From: a virus
Taxonomy: Duplodnaviria > Heunggongvirae > Uroviricota > Caudoviricetes
DNA: 6,146 nucleotides
Virus record (IMG/VR): IMGVR_UViG_2617270975_000012
Span: 1-6,146 of that record
Reading direction: 5' to 3' (one strand)
The notes under the pieces were generated by a model. It made no database searches and was not told where the DNA came from. It saw nothing but the letters and a program-made list of their open reading frames with translations. Shown here one piece after another: positions 1-6,146 of the stretch (the first letter of the stretch is position 1; each line of letters starts with the position of its first letter). The translations under genes were made by a program, and so were the position numbers.

Positions 1-96
1 AAGGTGCACCTTACTCCGGCTCAGTTATCCATGCTTCTTGAAGGTATCAACTGGAAGCACCCGAAACGAACGGAACGCGCTGGAATCCGCATATAA
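1..96 (+). CDS. tnpB: IS66-family TnpB (orf2), C-terminal fragment; 5' end outside window
   Basis: Frame 1 is open from position 1 and translates KVHLTPAQLSMLLEGINWKHPKRTERAGIRI before TAA at 94..96. It ends 19 bp before the tnpC ATG, matching tnpA-tnpB-tnpC order. Family assignment is from recall of TnpB C-termini, not a search. Confidence 0.55.
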   Translation, partial: KVHLTPAQLSMLLEGINWKHPKRTERAGIRI

Positions 97-115
97 CCCG
101 TTGTAAAGTGAGGAT

Positions 116-1687
116 ATGGACACCTCACTTGCTCATGAGAACGCCCGCCTGCGGGCACTGTTGCAGACGCAACAGGACACCATCCGCCAGATGGCTGAAT
201 ACAACCGCCTGCTCTCACAGCGGGTGGCGGCTTATGCTTCCGAAATCAACCGGCTGAAGGCGCTGGTTGCGAAACTGCAACGTATGCAGTTCGGTAAAAG
301 CTCAGAAAAACTTCGTGCAAAAACCGAACGGCAGATACAGGAAGCACAGGAGCGAATCAGCGCACTTCAGGAAGAAATGGCGGAAACGCTGGGTGAGCAA
401 TATGACCCGGTACTGCCATCCGCCCTGCGCCAGTCTTCAGCCCGTAAACCGTTACCGGCCTCACTTCCCCGTGAAACCCGGGTTATCCGGCCGGAAGAGG
501 AATGCTGTCCTGCCTGTGGTGGTGAACTCAGTTCTCTGGGATGTGATGTGTCAGAGCAACTGGAGCTTATCAGCAGCGCCTTTAAGGTTATCGAAACACA
601 ACGTCCGAAACAGGCCTGTTGCCGGTGCGACCATATCGTGCAGGCACCAGTACCTTCAAAACCCATTGCACGCAGTTATGCCGGAGCGGGGCTTCTGGCC
701 CATGTTGTCACCGGGAAATATGCAGACCATCTGCCGTTATACCGCCAGTCAGAAATATACCGTCGTCAGGGAGTGGAGCTGAGCCGTGCCACACTGGGGC
801 GCTGGACAGGTGCTGTTGCTGAACTGCTGGAGCCGCTGTATGACGTCCTGCGCCAGTATGTGCTGATGCCCGGTAAAGTCCATGCTGATGATATCCCCGT
901 CCCGGTCCAGGAGCCGGGCAGCGGTAAAACCCGGACAGCCCGGCTGTGGGTCTACGTCCGTGATGACCGTAACGCCGGTTCACAGATGCCCCCGGCGGTC
1001 TGGTTCGCGTACAGTCCGGACCGGAAAGGTATCCATCCACAAAATCACCTGGCCGGTTACAGCGGTGTGCTTCAGGCCGATGCTTACGGTGGTTACCGGG
1101 CGTTATACGAATCCGGCAGAATAACGGAAGCCGCGTGTATGGCTCATGCCCGGAGAAAAATCCACGATGTGCATGCAAGAGCGCCCACCTACATCACCAC
1201 GGAAGCCCTGCAGCGTATCGGTGAACTGTATGCCATCGAGGCAGAGGTCCGGGGCTGTTCAGCAGAACAGCGTCTGGCGGCAAGAAAAGCCAGAGCCGCG
1301 CCACTGATGCAGTCACTGTATGACTGGATACAGCAACAGATGAAAACACTGTCGCGTCACTCAGATACGGCAAAAGCGTTCGCATACCTGCTGAAACAGT
1401 GGGATGCACTGAACGTGTACTGCAGTAATGGCTGGGTGGAAATCGACAACAACATCGCAGAGAACGCCTTACGGGGAGTGGCCGTAGGCCGGAAAAACTG
1501 GATGTTCGCGGGTTCCAACAGCGGTGGTGAACATGCGGCGGTGTTGTACTCGCTGATCGGCACATGCCGTCTGAACAATGTGGAGCCAGAAAAGTGGCTG
1601 CGTTACGTCATTGAACATATCCAGGACTGGCCGGCAAACCGGGTACGCGATCTGTTGCCCTGGAAAGTTGATCTGAGCTCTCAGTAA
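116..1687 (+). CDS. tnpC: IS66-family transposase TnpC (orf3), 523 aa
   Basis: Full-length ORF. N-terminal heptad-rich coiled coil/leucine zipper (aa ~8-90), CxxC...CxC zinc-finger-like motif (EECCPACGG...QACCRCDH, aa 130-171), and DDE-type core candidates ([26 protein letters not shown]). First in-frame ATG after a stop at 104..106; GAGG at 110..113. Confidence 0.93.
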
Positions 1688-1690
1688 ATA

Positions 1691-1717
1691 TCAATACGGT
1701 TCTGACGAGTCGCTTAC
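1691..1717 (+). repeat. IS66-family terminal inverted repeat (tnpC-proximal end)
   Basis: Last ~27 bp of the repeated block, directly after the tnpC stop; ends ...CGCTTAC (complement GTAAGCG). Repeat identity stops exactly at 1717. IR length is an estimate. Confidence 0.6.
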
Positions 1718-1723
1718 GGAGGA

Positions 1724-2074
1724 ATGGCAATATCTGCAGGTCGTCTGACACAGATGATAAGTGTTCTGAAGCCGGTGTTAACCCGTAATGCTGCCGGAGA
1801 AATGACGGAAGAATGGGTGTCATGCGGGAAAATTCATGCGGATATCCGTGGCAGGAGCAGCCGGGAGCGGATGCAGTCCGGTGCGGAAATGGCGCAGGCG
1901 GAAATCCGCATCTGGGTGCGCGGTCAGTCCGGCCGGGAAATCACGGCAGCGTCACGACTTCATGTGCTGAGTGGTCCATGGCGTGACCGGATCCTGAACG
2001 TTGTCGGGCTGCCCGTGCCGGATGCGACCGGCGGGCGTCTGGAAATTCTCTGTCGGCTGGGAGGGGAAAAATGA
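1724..2074 (+). CDS. Phage head-tail adaptor / head closure (stopper) protein, Phage_H_T_join-like, 116 aa
   Basis: N-terminal M..AGRL motif, central AQAEIRIWVR block and C-terminal LEILCR are typical of head-tail joining proteins. Size and position, directly upstream of an HK97-gp10-like gene, fit. GGAGG at 1718..1722 is only 1 nt from the ATG; in-frame stop at 1703..1705 prevents upstream extension. Confidence 0.72.
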   Translation: MAISAGRLTQMISVLKPVLTRNAAGEMTEEWVSCGKIHADIRGRSSRERMQSGAEMAQAEIRIWVRGQSGREITAASRLHVLSGPWRDRILNVVGLPVPDATGGRLEILCRLGGEK

Positions 2075-2517
2075 TCGAAACCCTGCTGGATTTTTCGGGG
2101 CTGGAGGACATCAGCCGCGATTTGCAGCTTCTGAGTGGTGCGGAAAATAACCGGGTGCTGCGTGAGGCAACCCGTGCGGGTGCGAATGTGCTGAAAGAAG
2201 AAGTGGTGTCACGGGCACCGGTACGCAGGGGAAAACTGCGCCGCAATGTGGTGGTCCTTTCCCGGCGCTCCCGCGATGGCGGGATGGAATCCGGTGTGCA
2301 TATCCGGGGTGTTAATCCGGACACCGGTAACAGCGATAACACCATGAAGGCGGATAACCCGCGCAATGCTTTCTACTGGCGGTTTGTGGAAATGGGGACC
2401 GTGAATATGCCACCGCACCCGTTTGTGCGCCCGGCATTTGATGTGCGCAGTGAACAGGCGGCACAGGTGGCGATTGCGCGGATGAACCGGGCCATTGATG
2501 AGGTACTGAGACGATGA
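2071..2517 (+). CDS. HK97 gp10-family phage tail component (tail completion / neck protein), 148 aa
   Basis: RAPVRRGKLRR and FVEMGT..MPP.PFVRPAFD motifs match the HK97-gp10 family signature. Start overlaps the upstream stop (ATGA at 2071..2074). Confidence 0.78.
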   Translation: MIETLLDFSGLEDISRDLQLLSGAENNRVLREATRAGANVLKEEVVSRAPVRRGKLRRNVVVLSRRSRDGGMESGVHIRGVNPDTGNSDNTMKADNPRNAFYWRFVEMGTVNMPPHPFVRPAFDVRSEQAAQVAIARMNRAIDEVLRR

Positions 2518-2858
2518 CGGAGGCGGATTTGTATCCTCATCTGGCGCATCTTGCCGGCGGGCAGGTGTACCCGTATGTGGTCCCCCTGCTGGATGGCAGG
2601 CCGTCGGTGGCGCTTCCGTGGGTGGTTTTCAGCCTGATTTCATCGGTGTCTGCGGACGTGATGGGCGGGCAGGCGGAGTCCTCAGTGTCGGTGCAGATCG
2701 ACGTTTATGCCGGGACTGTGACGCAGGCGCGTCAGATACGTCAGGACGCCCGTGAAGCCATAATGCTGCTGGCCCCGGGATCCGTCAGTGAAATGCAGGA
2801 CTATATTCCGGAAAACCGCTGTTACCGTGCAACCCTGGAGTTTCAGGTCACGGTGTGA
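2514..2858 (+). CDS. DUF3168-like phage tail terminator / tail completion protein, 114 aa
   Basis: LYPHL...VYPYVVP...PWVVFSLIS...VQIDVY...AREAI pattern resembles DUF3168 proteins found between gp10-like and major tail genes. ATGA overlap with the upstream gene at 2514..2517. Confidence 0.62.
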   Translation: MTEADLYPHLAHLAGGQVYPYVVPLLDGRPSVALPWVVFSLISSVSADVMGGQAESSVSVQIDVYAGTVTQARQIRQDAREAIMLLAPGSVSEMQDYIPENRCYRATLEFQVTV

Positions 2859-2876
2859 CTTTTTCTTTTTTTCTAC

Positions 2877-2908
2877 AAAACCCATACCCCGCCGCGTGCG
2901 GGTTTTTT
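2877..2908 (+). terminator. Putative intrinsic terminator/attenuator between the tail terminator and major tail protein genes
   Basis: A-tract 2877..2880, GC stem CCCGC (2888..2892) / GCGGG (2898..2902) with 5-nt loop, then TTTTTT at 2903..2908. Preceded by a weaker hairpin GTCAC-GGT-GTGAC (2847..2859) plus a T-rich run (2860..2873). Confidence 0.45.
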
Positions 2909-2914
2909 ATTATC

Positions 2915-2920
2915 AGGAGG
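2915..2920 (+). promoter_or_regulatory. Shine-Dalgarno (AGGAGG) of the major tail protein gene
   Basis: Perfect AGGAGG 4 nt upstream of the ATG at 2925. Confidence 0.6.
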
Positions 2921-2924
2921 CAGA

Positions 2925-3641
2925 ATGTCTGCTTTGTATGAACGCTCACAGCTGACGCAGGTGATGATTTCATCTGCCCCGGCGACTGCTGAAACTATGG
3001 ATAAGGCGGAATATCTGCGCCTGGACTGCACCATCAAGGAAGTCCAGTTCACCGCCGGTCAGAAACAGGATATTGATGTGACCACGCTCTGCTCCACAGA
3101 GCAGGAGAACATCAACGGTCTGGGGGCGTCGTCTGAGATTTCCATGTCGGGTAATTTTTATCTGAATCAGGCCCAGAACGCCCTGCGTGATGCCTATGAC
3201 AATGACGCGTTGTATGCGTTTAAGGTGCTGTTTCCGTCCGGTAAGGGCTTTAAGTTCCTGGCGGAAGTGCGTCAGCACACCTGGTCATCCGGTACCAACG
3301 GCGTGGTGGCAGCAACGTTTTCACTGCGTATGAAAGGCAAACCGGTGTCCTTTGTGGTACCGCTGGCGTTTGTGAAAAATCTGGATAAAACACTTACCGT
3401 GAATACAGGTGCGCTGCTGACAATGTCAGTCAGTGCCAACGGGGGAACGCCGCCGTATAAATACGCCTGGAAGAAGGATGGTCAGCCGGTTGACGGGCAG
3501 ACGACAGACACCTTCAGTAAGCCAGGTGCGCAGTCCGCTGATGCGGGGAAATATACCTGCGTGGTGACCGATTCGGCAGAGAAAGCACAGAGTGTGACGT
3601 CTGTTGAATGCACCGTGACAGTGAGCGCAGCCGCCGGATAA
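2925..3641 (+). CDS. Phage major tail (tube) protein with C-terminal Ig-like domain, 238 aa
   Basis: Position after the adaptor/gp10/terminator genes and before the chaperone pair; strong SD. C-terminal ~85 aa (nt ~3370..3638) has Ig-fold-like features (alternating beta pattern, W, Y.C in GKYTCVVTD), as commonly appended to siphovirus tail tube proteins. Confidence 0.72.
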   Translation: MSALYERSQLTQVMISSAPATAETMDKAEYLRLDCTIKEVQFTAGQKQDIDVTTLCSTEQENINGLGASSEISMSGNFYLNQAQNALRDAYDNDALYAFKVLFPSGKGFKFLAEVRQHTWSSGTNGVVAATFSLRMKGKPVSFVVPLAFVKNLDKTLTVNTGALLTMSVSANGGTPPYKYAWKKDGQPVDGQTTDTFSKPGAQSADAGKYTCVVTDSAEKAQSVTSVECTVTVSAAAG

Positions 3642-3655
3642 GGGGATGGGTCATC

Positions 3656-4030
3656 ATGAAAAAGGATCTGAAAACGCTGGCGCTGGCCAGACTGTCAGGG
3701 TTTCGTCATAAAACGGTGAAGGTGCCGGAATGGGGTAATGTCAGCGTGGTGCTGCGGGAGCCTTCGGCAGAGGCCTGGTATCTGTGGCAGGAAGTGCTCA
3801 ATGGTGATGGAGAGGATGACGATACCCTGTCGGTGGTGGCGAAAACCCGCCGTAACCTGGAAGCGGATGTGACGCTGTTCTGCGATGTCCTGTGTGATAC
3901 TGACCTGCAACGGGTGTTCACTCCGGACGACCGTGAGCAGGTGCTGGCCGTCTATGGTCCGGTACATGCCCGGTTGCTGCGTCAGGCACTGGAACTGATC
4001 GCTGATGCAGAGTCGGCCAGAAAAAAGTAG
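3656..4030 (+). CDS. Tail assembly chaperone (lambda gpG-like), 124 aa
   Basis: Start chosen at ATG 3656 (GGGGA at 3642..3646), not the ORF-track start 3608, which overlaps the major tail gene. Acidic small protein immediately after the major tail gene, ending in a slippery site followed by a -1-frame ORF, the hallmark G/GT arrangement. Confidence 0.7.
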   Translation: MKKDLKTLALARLSGFRHKTVKVPEWGNVSVVLREPSAEAWYLWQEVLNGDGEDDDTLSVVAKTRRNLEADVTLFCDVLCDTDLQRVFTPDDREQVLAVYGPVHARLLRQALELIADAESARKK

Positions 4031-4335
4031 CCCGCCCGGAAATTCGCTTTCTGATGCGACTTGCGCTCCGTCTGGGGCGCACCTTATCCGAACTGCGGCA
4101 CAGCCTGAGTGCGAGCGAGGCGATGATGTGGATGGAGTTTGACAGGGTGTCCCCGCTGGGTGATGAGCGCGGGGATATCCGTAATGCACAGATCGTGAAA
4201 GCGGTTTTCGGGGCACAGGGGATGAATGTTGCACTGAAGGACGCCATGCTCTGCTGGGGCGAGGATGAGGATAAGCCGGAGGTGGATCCGTTTGCGGCGC
4301 TGGAAGACGCGCTGAGCTTTGCAGCACAGTCATGA
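3656..4335 (+). CDS. Tail assembly chaperone G-T fusion via -1 frameshift (join 3656..4027, 4027..4335), about 226 aa
   Basis: The -1 frame after the slippery site is continuous with ORF-track 4054..4335 (MRLALRLGRTLSELRHSL..., gpT-like). Conserved G/GT frameshift arrangement of long-tailed phages. Confidence 0.62.
4021..4027 (+). other. Programmed -1 ribosomal frameshift slippery heptamer A_AAA_AAG
   Basis: Zero-frame codons AGA AAA AAG TAG at 4019..4030. The -1 frame from 4027 reads GTA GCC CGC CCG GAA ATT CGC TTT CTG ATG... with no stop through 4335. Confidence 0.65.
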
Positions 4336-4343
4336 ATGATGAG

Positions 4344-4364
4344 AACCGCTGAGGCGGTTTTTTT
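4344..4364 (+). terminator. Terminator-like hairpin downstream of the T segment
   Basis: Stem AACCGC (4344..4349) / GCGGTT (4354..4359), loop TGAG, T-run 4358..4364. Lies 9 bp after the G-T stop at 4333..4335. Confidence 0.4.
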
Positions 4365-4382
4365 ACGCCCGGAGAAAGGTGA

Positions 4383-4433
4383 ATGGCGACGTTACGTGAA
4401 CTGATTATCAAAATTTCGGCAAATTCACAGTAA
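4383..4433 (+). pseudogene. Truncated 5' end of a probable tail tape-measure gene (16 codons), interrupted by the IS66 terminus
   Basis: GGAGA at 4371..4375, ATG at 4383, MATLRELIIKISANSQ, then in-frame TAA at 4431..4433 supplied by the IS terminus starting at 4430. Identity as tape measure is inferred from position after G/GT only. Confidence 0.4.
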
Positions 4434-4456
4434 GCGACTCGTCAGAACCGTATTGA
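4430..4456 (-). repeat. IS66-family terminal inverted repeat (tnpC-proximal end) of the second copy
   Basis: Mirror of 1691..1717; GTAAGCG at 4430..4436. Confidence 0.6.
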
Positions 4457-4459
4457 TAT

Positions 4460-6031
4460 TTACTGAGAGCTCAGATCAACTTTCCAGGGCAACAGATCGC
4501 GTACCCGGTTTGCCGGCCAGTCCTGGATATGTTCAATGACGTAACGCAGCCACTTTTCTGGCTCCACATTGTTCAGACGGCATGTGCCGATCAGCGAGTA
4601 CAACACCGCCGCATGTTCACCACCGCTGTTGGAACCCGCGAACATCCAGTTTTTCCGGCCTACGGCCACTCCCCGTAAGGCGTTCTCTGCGATGTTGTTG
4701 TCGATTTCCACCCAGCCATTACTGCAGTACACGTTCAGTGCATCCCACTGTTTCAGCAGGTATGCGAACGCTTTTGCCGTATCTGAGTGACGCGACAGTG
4801 TTTTCATCTGTTGCTGTATCCAGTCATACAGTGACTGCATCAGTGGCGCGGCTCTGGCTTTTCTTGCCGCCAGACGCTGTTCTGCTGAACAGCCCCGGAC
4901 CTCTGCCTCGATGGCATACAGTTCACCGATACGCTGCAGGGCTTCCGTGGTGATGTAGGTGGGCGCTCTTGCATGCACATCGTGGATTTTTCTCCGGGCA
5001 TGAGCCATACACGCGGCTTCCGTTATTCTGCCGGATTCGTATAACGCCCGGTAACCACCGTAAGCATCGGCCTGAAGCACACCGCTGTAACCGGCCAGGT
5101 GATTTTGTGGATGGATACCTTTCCGGTCCGGACTGTACGCGAACCAGACCGCCGGGGGCATCTGTGAACCGGCGTTACGGTCATCACGGACGTAGACCCA
5201 CAGCCGGGCTGTCCGGGTTTTACCGCTGCCCGGCTCCTGGACCGGGACGGGGATATCATCAGCATGGACTTTACCGGGCATCAGCACATACTGGCGCAGG
5301 ACGTCATACAGCGGCTCCAGCAGTTCAGCAACAGCACCTGTCCAGCGCCCCAGTGTGGCACGGCTCAGCTCCACTCCCTGACGACGGTATATTTCTGACT
5401 GGCGGTATAACGGCAGATGGTCTGCATATTTCCCGGTGACAACATGGGCCAGAAGCCCCGCTCCGGCATAACTGCGTGCAATGGGTTTTGAAGGTACTGG
5501 TGCCTGCACGATATGGTCGCACCGGCAACAGGCCTGTTTCGGACGTTGTGTTTCGATAACCTTAAAGGCGCTGCTGATAAGCTCCAGTTGCTCTGACACA
5601 TCACATCCCAGAGAACTGAGTTCACCACCACAGGCAGGACAGCATTCCTCTTCCGGCCGGATAACCCGGGTTTCACGGGGAAGTGAGGCCGGTAACGGTT
5701 TACGGGCTGAAGACTGGCGCAGGGCGGATGGCAGTACCGGGTCATATTGCTCACCCAGCGTTTCCGCCATTTCTTCCTGAAGTGCGCTGATTCGCTCCTG
5801 TGCTTCCTGTATCTGCCGTTCGGTTTTTGCACGAAGTTTTTCTGAGCTTTTACCGAACTGCATACGTTGCAGTTTCGCAACCAGCGCCTTCAGCCGGTTG
5901 ATTTCGGAAGCATAAGCCGCCACCCGCTGTGAGAGCAGGCGGTTGTATTCAGCCATCTGGCGGATGGTGTCCTGTTGCGTCTGCAACAGTGCCCGCAGGC
6001 GGGCGTTCTCATGAGCAAGTGAGGTGTCCAT
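4460..6031 (-). CDS. tnpC: IS66-family transposase TnpC (orf3), 523 aa, second copy
   Basis: ORF translation is identical to 116..1687. Confidence 0.93.
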
Positions 6032-6050
6032 ATCCTCACTTTACAACGGG

Positions 6051-6146
6051 TTATATGCGGATTCCAGCGCGTTCCGTTCGTTTCGGGTGCTTCCAGTTGA
6101 TACCTTCAAGAAGCATGGATAACTGAGCCGGAGTAAGGTGCACCTT
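6051..6146 (-). CDS. tnpB: IS66-family TnpB (orf2), C-terminal fragment, second copy; 5' end outside window
   Basis: Mirror of 1..96. Confidence 0.55.
   Translation of the reverse strand, partial: KVHLTPAQLSMLLEGINWKHPKRTERAGIRI

Follow-up and report, generated by a model that had tools for sequence, protein, structure and literature searches.

The 6,146-nt stretch of DNA analyzed here (the window) is best explained overall, and very probably correctly, by a clean ISCro1 insertion in the spacer between the genes Ad1 and Hc1 of an IS-decayed, Stx-phage-like prophage. On this explanation the window would hold 2,712 bp from the morphogenesis operon of a lambdoid Stx-phage-like (Pankowvirus-type) prophage, running from Hc1 to codon 16 of the tape measure gene, with an ISCro1-family element on either side, the two copies being inverted and their tnpC-proximal ends facing inward. 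The structure rests on a single sequence that reaches 1,717 nt into each IS, the outer flanks lying beyond.

The window is made up of three parts, namely the right-hand part of an IS (positions 1-1717), phage DNA (1718-4429) and an inverted IS arm (4430-6146). The left copy, on the plus strand, represents the right-hand 1,717 bp of a 2,699-bp element of the ISCro1 family (IS66 family) and matches at least eight full copies with 0 mismatches; its IRR terminus, ...GTCGCTTAC, ends at 1717. The second copy, on the minus strand, is the exact reverse complement of 1-1717 and turns its IRR end (GTAAGCGACTC...) towards the phage segment. Direct comparison showed that the arms diverge precisely at 1717/4430; arms of 1,728 nt returned by a repeat finder were rejected, the last 11 nt being an ungapped over-extension. 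The left copy begins with the 3′ end of tnpB, encoding an IS66 accessory protein (last 31 codons and stop, 1-96, plus strand, by alignment to full copies), and the TnpB_IS66 domain (PF05717) of full copies ends at the same point as this remnant. It is followed by tnpC (116-1687, plus strand, stop TAA at 1685-1687), which encodes a 523-aa DDE transposase, has the same orientation as the phage genes and matches all four IS66-family Pfam domains, PF03050 (E 4.5e-103), PF13817, PF13007 and PF13005. The remaining 30 nt of the IS end (IRR, 1688-1717, plus strand) are non-coding, with a best fold of -2.5 kcal/mol, and in these 30 nt neither a terminator hairpin nor an outward promoter was found by folding and a consensus scan.

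The element is named ‘IS66-like element ISCro1 family’ by RefSeq/PGAP, and the exact TnpC protein was found in thousands of assemblies (3,675 blocks). In ten loci fetched around this protein the 1,717 nt were identical to the window. The copies in eight loci (L002-L008 and L011) matched positions 1-1717 with 0 mismatches and had a different flank in each case, directly after ...cgcttac. The left end of the full element reads GTAACCGGCTC..., which gives the IS length of 2,699 bp. The full 0-mismatch copies carry tnpA (PF01527), tnpB (PF05717) and tnpC, the three-gene organization of IS66 elements, and their termini form imperfect inverted repeats as in that family, the right end reading GTAAGCGACTCGTCAGAACCG as reverse complement and the left end GTAACCGGCTCATTTAAACCG; termini beginning with GTAAGCG or a similar sequence are reportedly a hallmark of the IS66 family. 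Direct repeats of 8 bp flank copies of the IS (AATCATTC in L003, TATATTCC in L005, ATACATCG in L006 and ACACTAAC in L007), and a target duplication of 8 bp is cited for IS66 (PMC6778807). One further copy (L004, 4895-4903/7603-7611) has a direct repeat of 9 bp instead of 8 bp, ATGAAAATC, and the copy in L002 (at about 5704) is cut 182 nt upstream of the position corresponding to window position 1 by the end of another IS66-family element (...GACGCTTAC). In a paper on E. coli ST131 (PMC8764528) ISCro1 is given as 2,824 bp, as against 2,699 bp for the element identical to the window (L003, 4904-7602); given these differing lengths, more than one element may go under the PGAP label ‘ISCro1 family’. 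The organization tnpA-tnpB-tnpC, the 8-bp target duplications, a TnpC with LZ, zinc-finger, DDE_Tnp_IS66 and IS66_C domains, and termini starting with GTAA(C/G)CG are all shared with ISCro1/IS679-type elements of E. coli and Citrobacter rodentium; the element itself is no different from these, and only the insertion site in the window is unrecorded in the collections searched.

At the left junction the stop of tnpC (1685-1687) and the IS terminus (1717) are followed by GGAGGA (1718-1723) and an ATG (1724-1726), with 36 nt between stop and ATG. The preliminary description of this DNA had placed the IS end at 1717, the ATG at 1724 and the stop of a co-oriented tnpC 36 nt upstream, and all of these positions proved exact. 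The boundary at 1717 was fixed in three ways, by the divergence of the two arms, by independent copies with different flanks and by the homology to uninterrupted prophages, which begins exactly at window base 1718. From there to 4429/4431 the sequence matches an uninterrupted prophage of E. coli S1-IND-01-A (H1) at 100% identity, and its identity to the Stx-converting Pankowvirus phages is about 99%; over 1718-4431, YYZ-2008, phi330, Stx1a phages and the S1-IND-01-A prophage showed 99-100% nucleotide identity. The same interval was covered to at least 80% in 1,237 of the 5,426 complete E. coli genomes.

The uninterrupted relatives define what the IS entered. Their native order is ...GTGTTA-TGA-GGAGGGAGGA-ATG-GCAATA..., where TGA is the stop of the gp6-like head-tail adaptor gene Ad1, and the native sequence TGAGGAGGGAGGAATG was seen in L001, YYZ-2008 and pSTEC411_1. 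The pre-insertion sequence, which the preliminary description had proposed to reconstruct from an uninterrupted prophage, is now known, because intact relatives read TGA-GGAGGGAGGA-ATG. The insertion point lies within the 10-nt Ad1-Hc1 spacer, 4 nt past the Ad1 stop and 6 nt before the Hc1 ATG, and on the phage side of the junction not one base was lost. Ad1 or a gp6-like connector lies directly upstream of Hc1 in L001, L022, L023 and L024. The start of Hc1 is annotated identically in four uninterrupted homologs, which runs against the notion that the gene might normally start elsewhere. The native sequences also show that only GGAGGA is left of the native leader at the IS end, this residual Shine-Dalgarno (SD) sequence (1718-1723, plus strand) being the 6 nt kept of the native 10-nt spacer.

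The left junction looks like a plain insertion, with the break at the IS terminus and the phage side intact. From identical IS copies elsewhere, an 8-bp target site, GGAGGAAT, is predicted at 1718-1725 on the plus strand, and in a simple insertion the IRL end of the left copy would carry its duplicate. A simple left insertion would there show ...TGAGGAGGGAGGAAT joined to GTAACCGGCTC, that is, the Ad1 side with the 8-bp duplication followed by IRL. The predicted IRL junction of the left copy would in that case read GGAGGGAGGA-ATG-TAA, and the intact native SD would drive a start-stop mini-ORF at the far end of the IS. The reading frames on the two sides of the left junction are shared, tnpC and Hc1 lying in one frame (1685-1726) split by the TAA at 1685 and a TGA at 1703; an N-terminally extended or fused Hc1 was considered and is blocked by these two in-frame stops. 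Rfam returned no match in the window, and an RNA element at the junction was rejected; for a 71-aa antisense ORF across the junction no exact-protein record was found.

Since two IS copies border the phage segment, other histories were weighed. It is possible, though clearly less favored, that the 2.7-kb segment is flipped with respect to the rest of the prophage, by recombination between IS copies or by replicative transposition; two inverted copies 2.7 kb apart with both IRR ends inward have the geometry of a duplicative inversion, and two independent hops so close together would require local hopping. However, this geometry fits two simple insertions equally well, and all three scenarios give the same four local junctions, which is why an IS-flanked piece of this kind cannot be oriented from short reads. 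Two simple insertions would leave the junctions ...TGAGGAGGGAGGAAT joined to GTAACCGG... and ...CCGGTTAC joined to AATTCACAGTCATTCC.... If the segment is inverted, the head genes and the late promoter would not lie upstream of Hc1 in the same orientation. That one intramolecular replicative transposition both duplicated the IS and inverted the 2.7-kb segment seems to us quite improbable; to our knowledge, it has not been established by what chemistry IS66 elements transpose. If true, such an event would be natural evidence of a replicative mode in this family, and the block from Hc1 to the tape measure gene would be an IS-bounded segment able to flip and thereby cut three connector genes off from the late promoter.

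A deletion that left the IS in place, by IS-mediated adjacent deletion with a prophage remnant as its outcome, and removed the head region together with the upstream prophage and its late promoter, appears unlikely. No head gene is present in the window, the prophage is already degraded with its tape measure gene cut, and IS66 elements mediate large deletions by recombination (PMC6778807). Against this, positive evidence for a deletion is lacking, as the window just ends inside the IS, and the break falls exactly at the IS terminus with the phage side intact, as a plain insertion predicts. The IS had been described as replacing the upstream head region, which overstates the case: the break is in the 10-nt spacer, the phage side is complete and the window covers just 1,717 nt of the IS. 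Head genes may lie just beyond the 2.7-kb IS.

We consider it very unlikely that the window is an assembly artifact, either with real junctions that belong to different molecules or subpopulations or as a chimeric contig. The window does resemble a contig built from short reads, extending outward from a unique core into a repeat as far as a fork, and public assemblies repeatedly show contigs that stop where it stops. Both ends (1-12 and 6135-6146) fall on the same base inside tnpB, at the 12-nt perfect palindrome AAGGTGCACCTT. Short draft contigs that stop at that base, or 1 nt before it, account for the 60 blocks in which the 31-aa TnpB edge fragment was found; they came from several pipelines, and three of them from one assembly. 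A 30-aa TnpB fragment, as expected for a contig start 1-3 bases further in, gave no record (0 vs 60 blocks). A truncated or mosaic IS was not found to account for the window ends, other IS66 relatives sharing only about 14 nt there, and no truncated IS class was visible among the complete genomes. The window is thus probably a complete draft contig of this kind. Pooled reads may be all that lies behind the perfect identity of the two arms, which is therefore uninformative on the age of the insertions. Against an artifact, the core is one colinear 2,712-bp stretch that is 100% identical to a real prophage, and at both junctions the IS terminus is exact and the target plausible; exact IS ends on both sides are not what a chimera would produce.

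The idea that an IS-segment-IS unit carried the tail genes outside the prophage as a composite transposon can be set aside as extremely improbable: two IS copies with exact inverted arms do bracket a short segment with their transposable ends outward, like Tn5 or Tn10, but unlike these the unit has no selectable cargo, only a truncated, useless operon fragment, and no sign of past movement, neither junction being found in plasmids, complete E. coli genomes, phage records or metagenomes. The searches behind this statement covered 5,426 complete E. coli genomes, 72,556 PLSDB plasmids and the INPHARED phages, and also JGI metagenomes, GTDB representative genomes and IMG/VR, these last three with one degenerate pattern covering both junctions; neither junction occurred in any of these collections.

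The phage genes between the two IS copies can be assigned as follows, all on the plus strand. The gene at 1724-2074 encodes a 116-aa head closure (head completion) protein, Hc1, from its native start (PF05521, E 6e-18; phrog_25, E 9e-32). The preliminary description had labeled it ‘head-tail adaptor’, a name that older records use for Hc1 and that is now given to the upstream gene; PF05521 and phrog_25 identify the gene at 1724 as Hc1, and Ad1 is the gene upstream. In the intact relatives this Hc1 follows Ad1, as in the siphovirus connector module (Ad1-Hc1-neck-terminator). Downstream lie genes for an HK97 gp10-like neck or tail-completion protein (148 aa, 2071-2517; PF04883, phrog_5), a tail terminator (gp17/DUF3168; 114 aa, 2514-2858; PF11367, phrog_347) and the major tail tube protein (238 aa, 2925-3641; phrog_158, E 2e-116), the last with a C-terminal Ig-like domain (Ig_3 and I-set, residues about 149-227). 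In some phage records the Ig-like part of the major tail protein is split off or mislabeled as ‘Hoc-like head decoration’. The tail assembly chaperones G (3656-4030) and T (4054-4335) occupy 3656-4335 (PF06222, E 1e-61; PF06223), and a slippery heptamer, A AAA AAG, lies at 4021-4027 at the end of G, with the -1 frame open as a 226-aa G-T fusion. A programmed -1 frameshift giving a G-T fusion is conserved in long-tailed phages. The order Hc1, gp10-like, terminator, major tail, G/GT and tape measure is that of the intact Pankowvirus/Stx-phage module, which differs in having Ad1 directly upstream and a full tape measure gene of 1,080 codons.

The right end of the segment shows that the tape measure gene was destroyed by the right IS copy. 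What is left of it is a 16-codon remnant (MATLRELIIKISANSQ; 4383-4433, plus strand), compared with 3,243 nt and those 1,080 codons for the native gene in L001. Homology ends at 4429-4431, and the stop of the remnant, TAA, is supplied by the IS terminus GTAAGCG; the homology seems to reach 2 nt into the IS because the native sequence also continues with GT. The target site of the right copy in the insertion flank is predicted to be AATTCACA (4422-4429). Neither the second, inverted IS copy nor the cut in the tape measure gene had been part of the preliminary description. Because the tape measure gene is cut at codon 16, the prophage is tail-defective whatever happens at the left junction; we infer that it cannot build tails and is defective. 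As the second IS copy truncates this gene, expression of the Hc1 region is irrelevant to phage production.

We then considered what the left insertion would do to the translation of Hc1. The native leader is a tandem purine tract in which copies of GGAGG lie 5 nt and 1 nt from the ATG. The insertion would cut this tract between GGAG and GGAGGA, leaving a GGAGG 1 nt from the ATG, and the leader accordingly reads CGCTTACGGAGGAATG at the junction vs TGAGGAGGGAGGAATG in the native sequence. The unusually short SD spacing that had been pointed out is real as a 1-nt gap, but it is not a peculiarity of the gene: it is a native leftover, present because the insertion removed the GGAGG spaced at 5 nt and kept the native one at 1 nt. 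The computed duplex with the anti-SD at the 16S 3′ end was -9.5 kcal/mol at the junction vs -12.5 kcal/mol for the native leader, and the predicted unpaired probability of the ribosome-binding site was 0.49 vs 0.64. A spacing like that of the remaining site is said to be generally too short for efficient initiation. In addition, translational coupling of Hc1 to Ad1 would be lost with the insertion. Taken from these computed values, the translation of Hc1 is probably weakened by the left insertion.

With regard to transcription, the 2.7 kb of co-oriented IS would separate Hc1 from anything upstream, so that Hc1 mRNA would need transcripts that start in the IS or pass through it. No plus-strand sigma-70-like promoter site was found in 1-4500 by a consensus scan, which weak promoters could escape, and no terminator-like site was found before 2845. 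The 36-nt stretch from the tnpC stop to the Hc1 ATG folds weakly and would be no obstacle; because no terminator-like site lies between, transcription of tnpC, or transcription coming across the IS, would carry on into Hc1. The proposal that expression of the tail genes would depend on read-through is in keeping with these results, as no promoter or terminator was seen between tnpC and the ATG and the only source of mRNA in sight is transcription that arises in the IS or crosses it. An outward promoter, whether complete or a hybrid of an IS -35 with a flank -10, was absent from the consensus scan, and the hybrid promoter was rejected. The only sigma-70-like match in 1-4500 is on the minus strand at 1781-1754 (TTAACA, 16-nt spacer, TATCAT), within Hc1 and directed at the IS, one match compared with 1.9 expected by chance.

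Further downstream, and likewise absent from the preliminary description, scans and folds indicated two terminator-like sites, each a hairpin with a U-run, before the major tail gene (2845-2906, plus strand), and a hairpin with U7 before the tape measure gene (4341-4362, plus strand; fold -10.8 kcal/mol). Their position inside the tail operon implies a reliance on antitermination. In lambdoid phages, Q antitermination overrides such terminators. Read-through that is not antiterminated would end at 2845-2906, after three genes. To get beyond these sites it would have to be Q-modified late transcription from a late promoter that has stayed upstream in the same orientation, in which case Q antitermination would also take the polymerase through the co-oriented IS.

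A measured case of ISCro1 upstream of an operon comes from the afa/dr locus of E. coli ST131, where an insertion upstream of afaA reduced both its transcription and the activity of the promoter (PMC8764528). That insertion likewise lies upstream of an operon and cuts off native signals, but it is 440 bp upstream with a measured drop in afaA (PMC8764528), whereas the one in the window is 6 bp from the start codon, in the ribosome-binding tract. The afaA case gives no support for a strong outward promoter in ISCro1. If read-through from ISCro1 drives Hc1, this would be another example of IS polarity or read-through and no new principle.

IS elements accumulate in the late and tail genes of EHEC lambdoid prophages and give rise to defective prophages, for example in O157 with IS629, although the element in the window belongs to a different IS family from that of these IS629-ridden prophages. 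In complete genomes (H39, H56 and H70), other phage tail genes were likewise found with ISCro1-type ends beside them, and ISCro1/IS679-type elements are known to expand and are mostly located in mobile elements (PMC3072379). The left junction is most readily understood as a side effect of IS elements multiplying in a decaying prophage rather than as a regulatory device. For annotation, the value of the finding is that the gene should be named head closure Hc1, with a damaged leader, and that the tape measure gene is truncated. For the biology of the prophage, both the IS and the phage module it entered are known, and the case is one of ordinary prophage decay, with no new mechanism.
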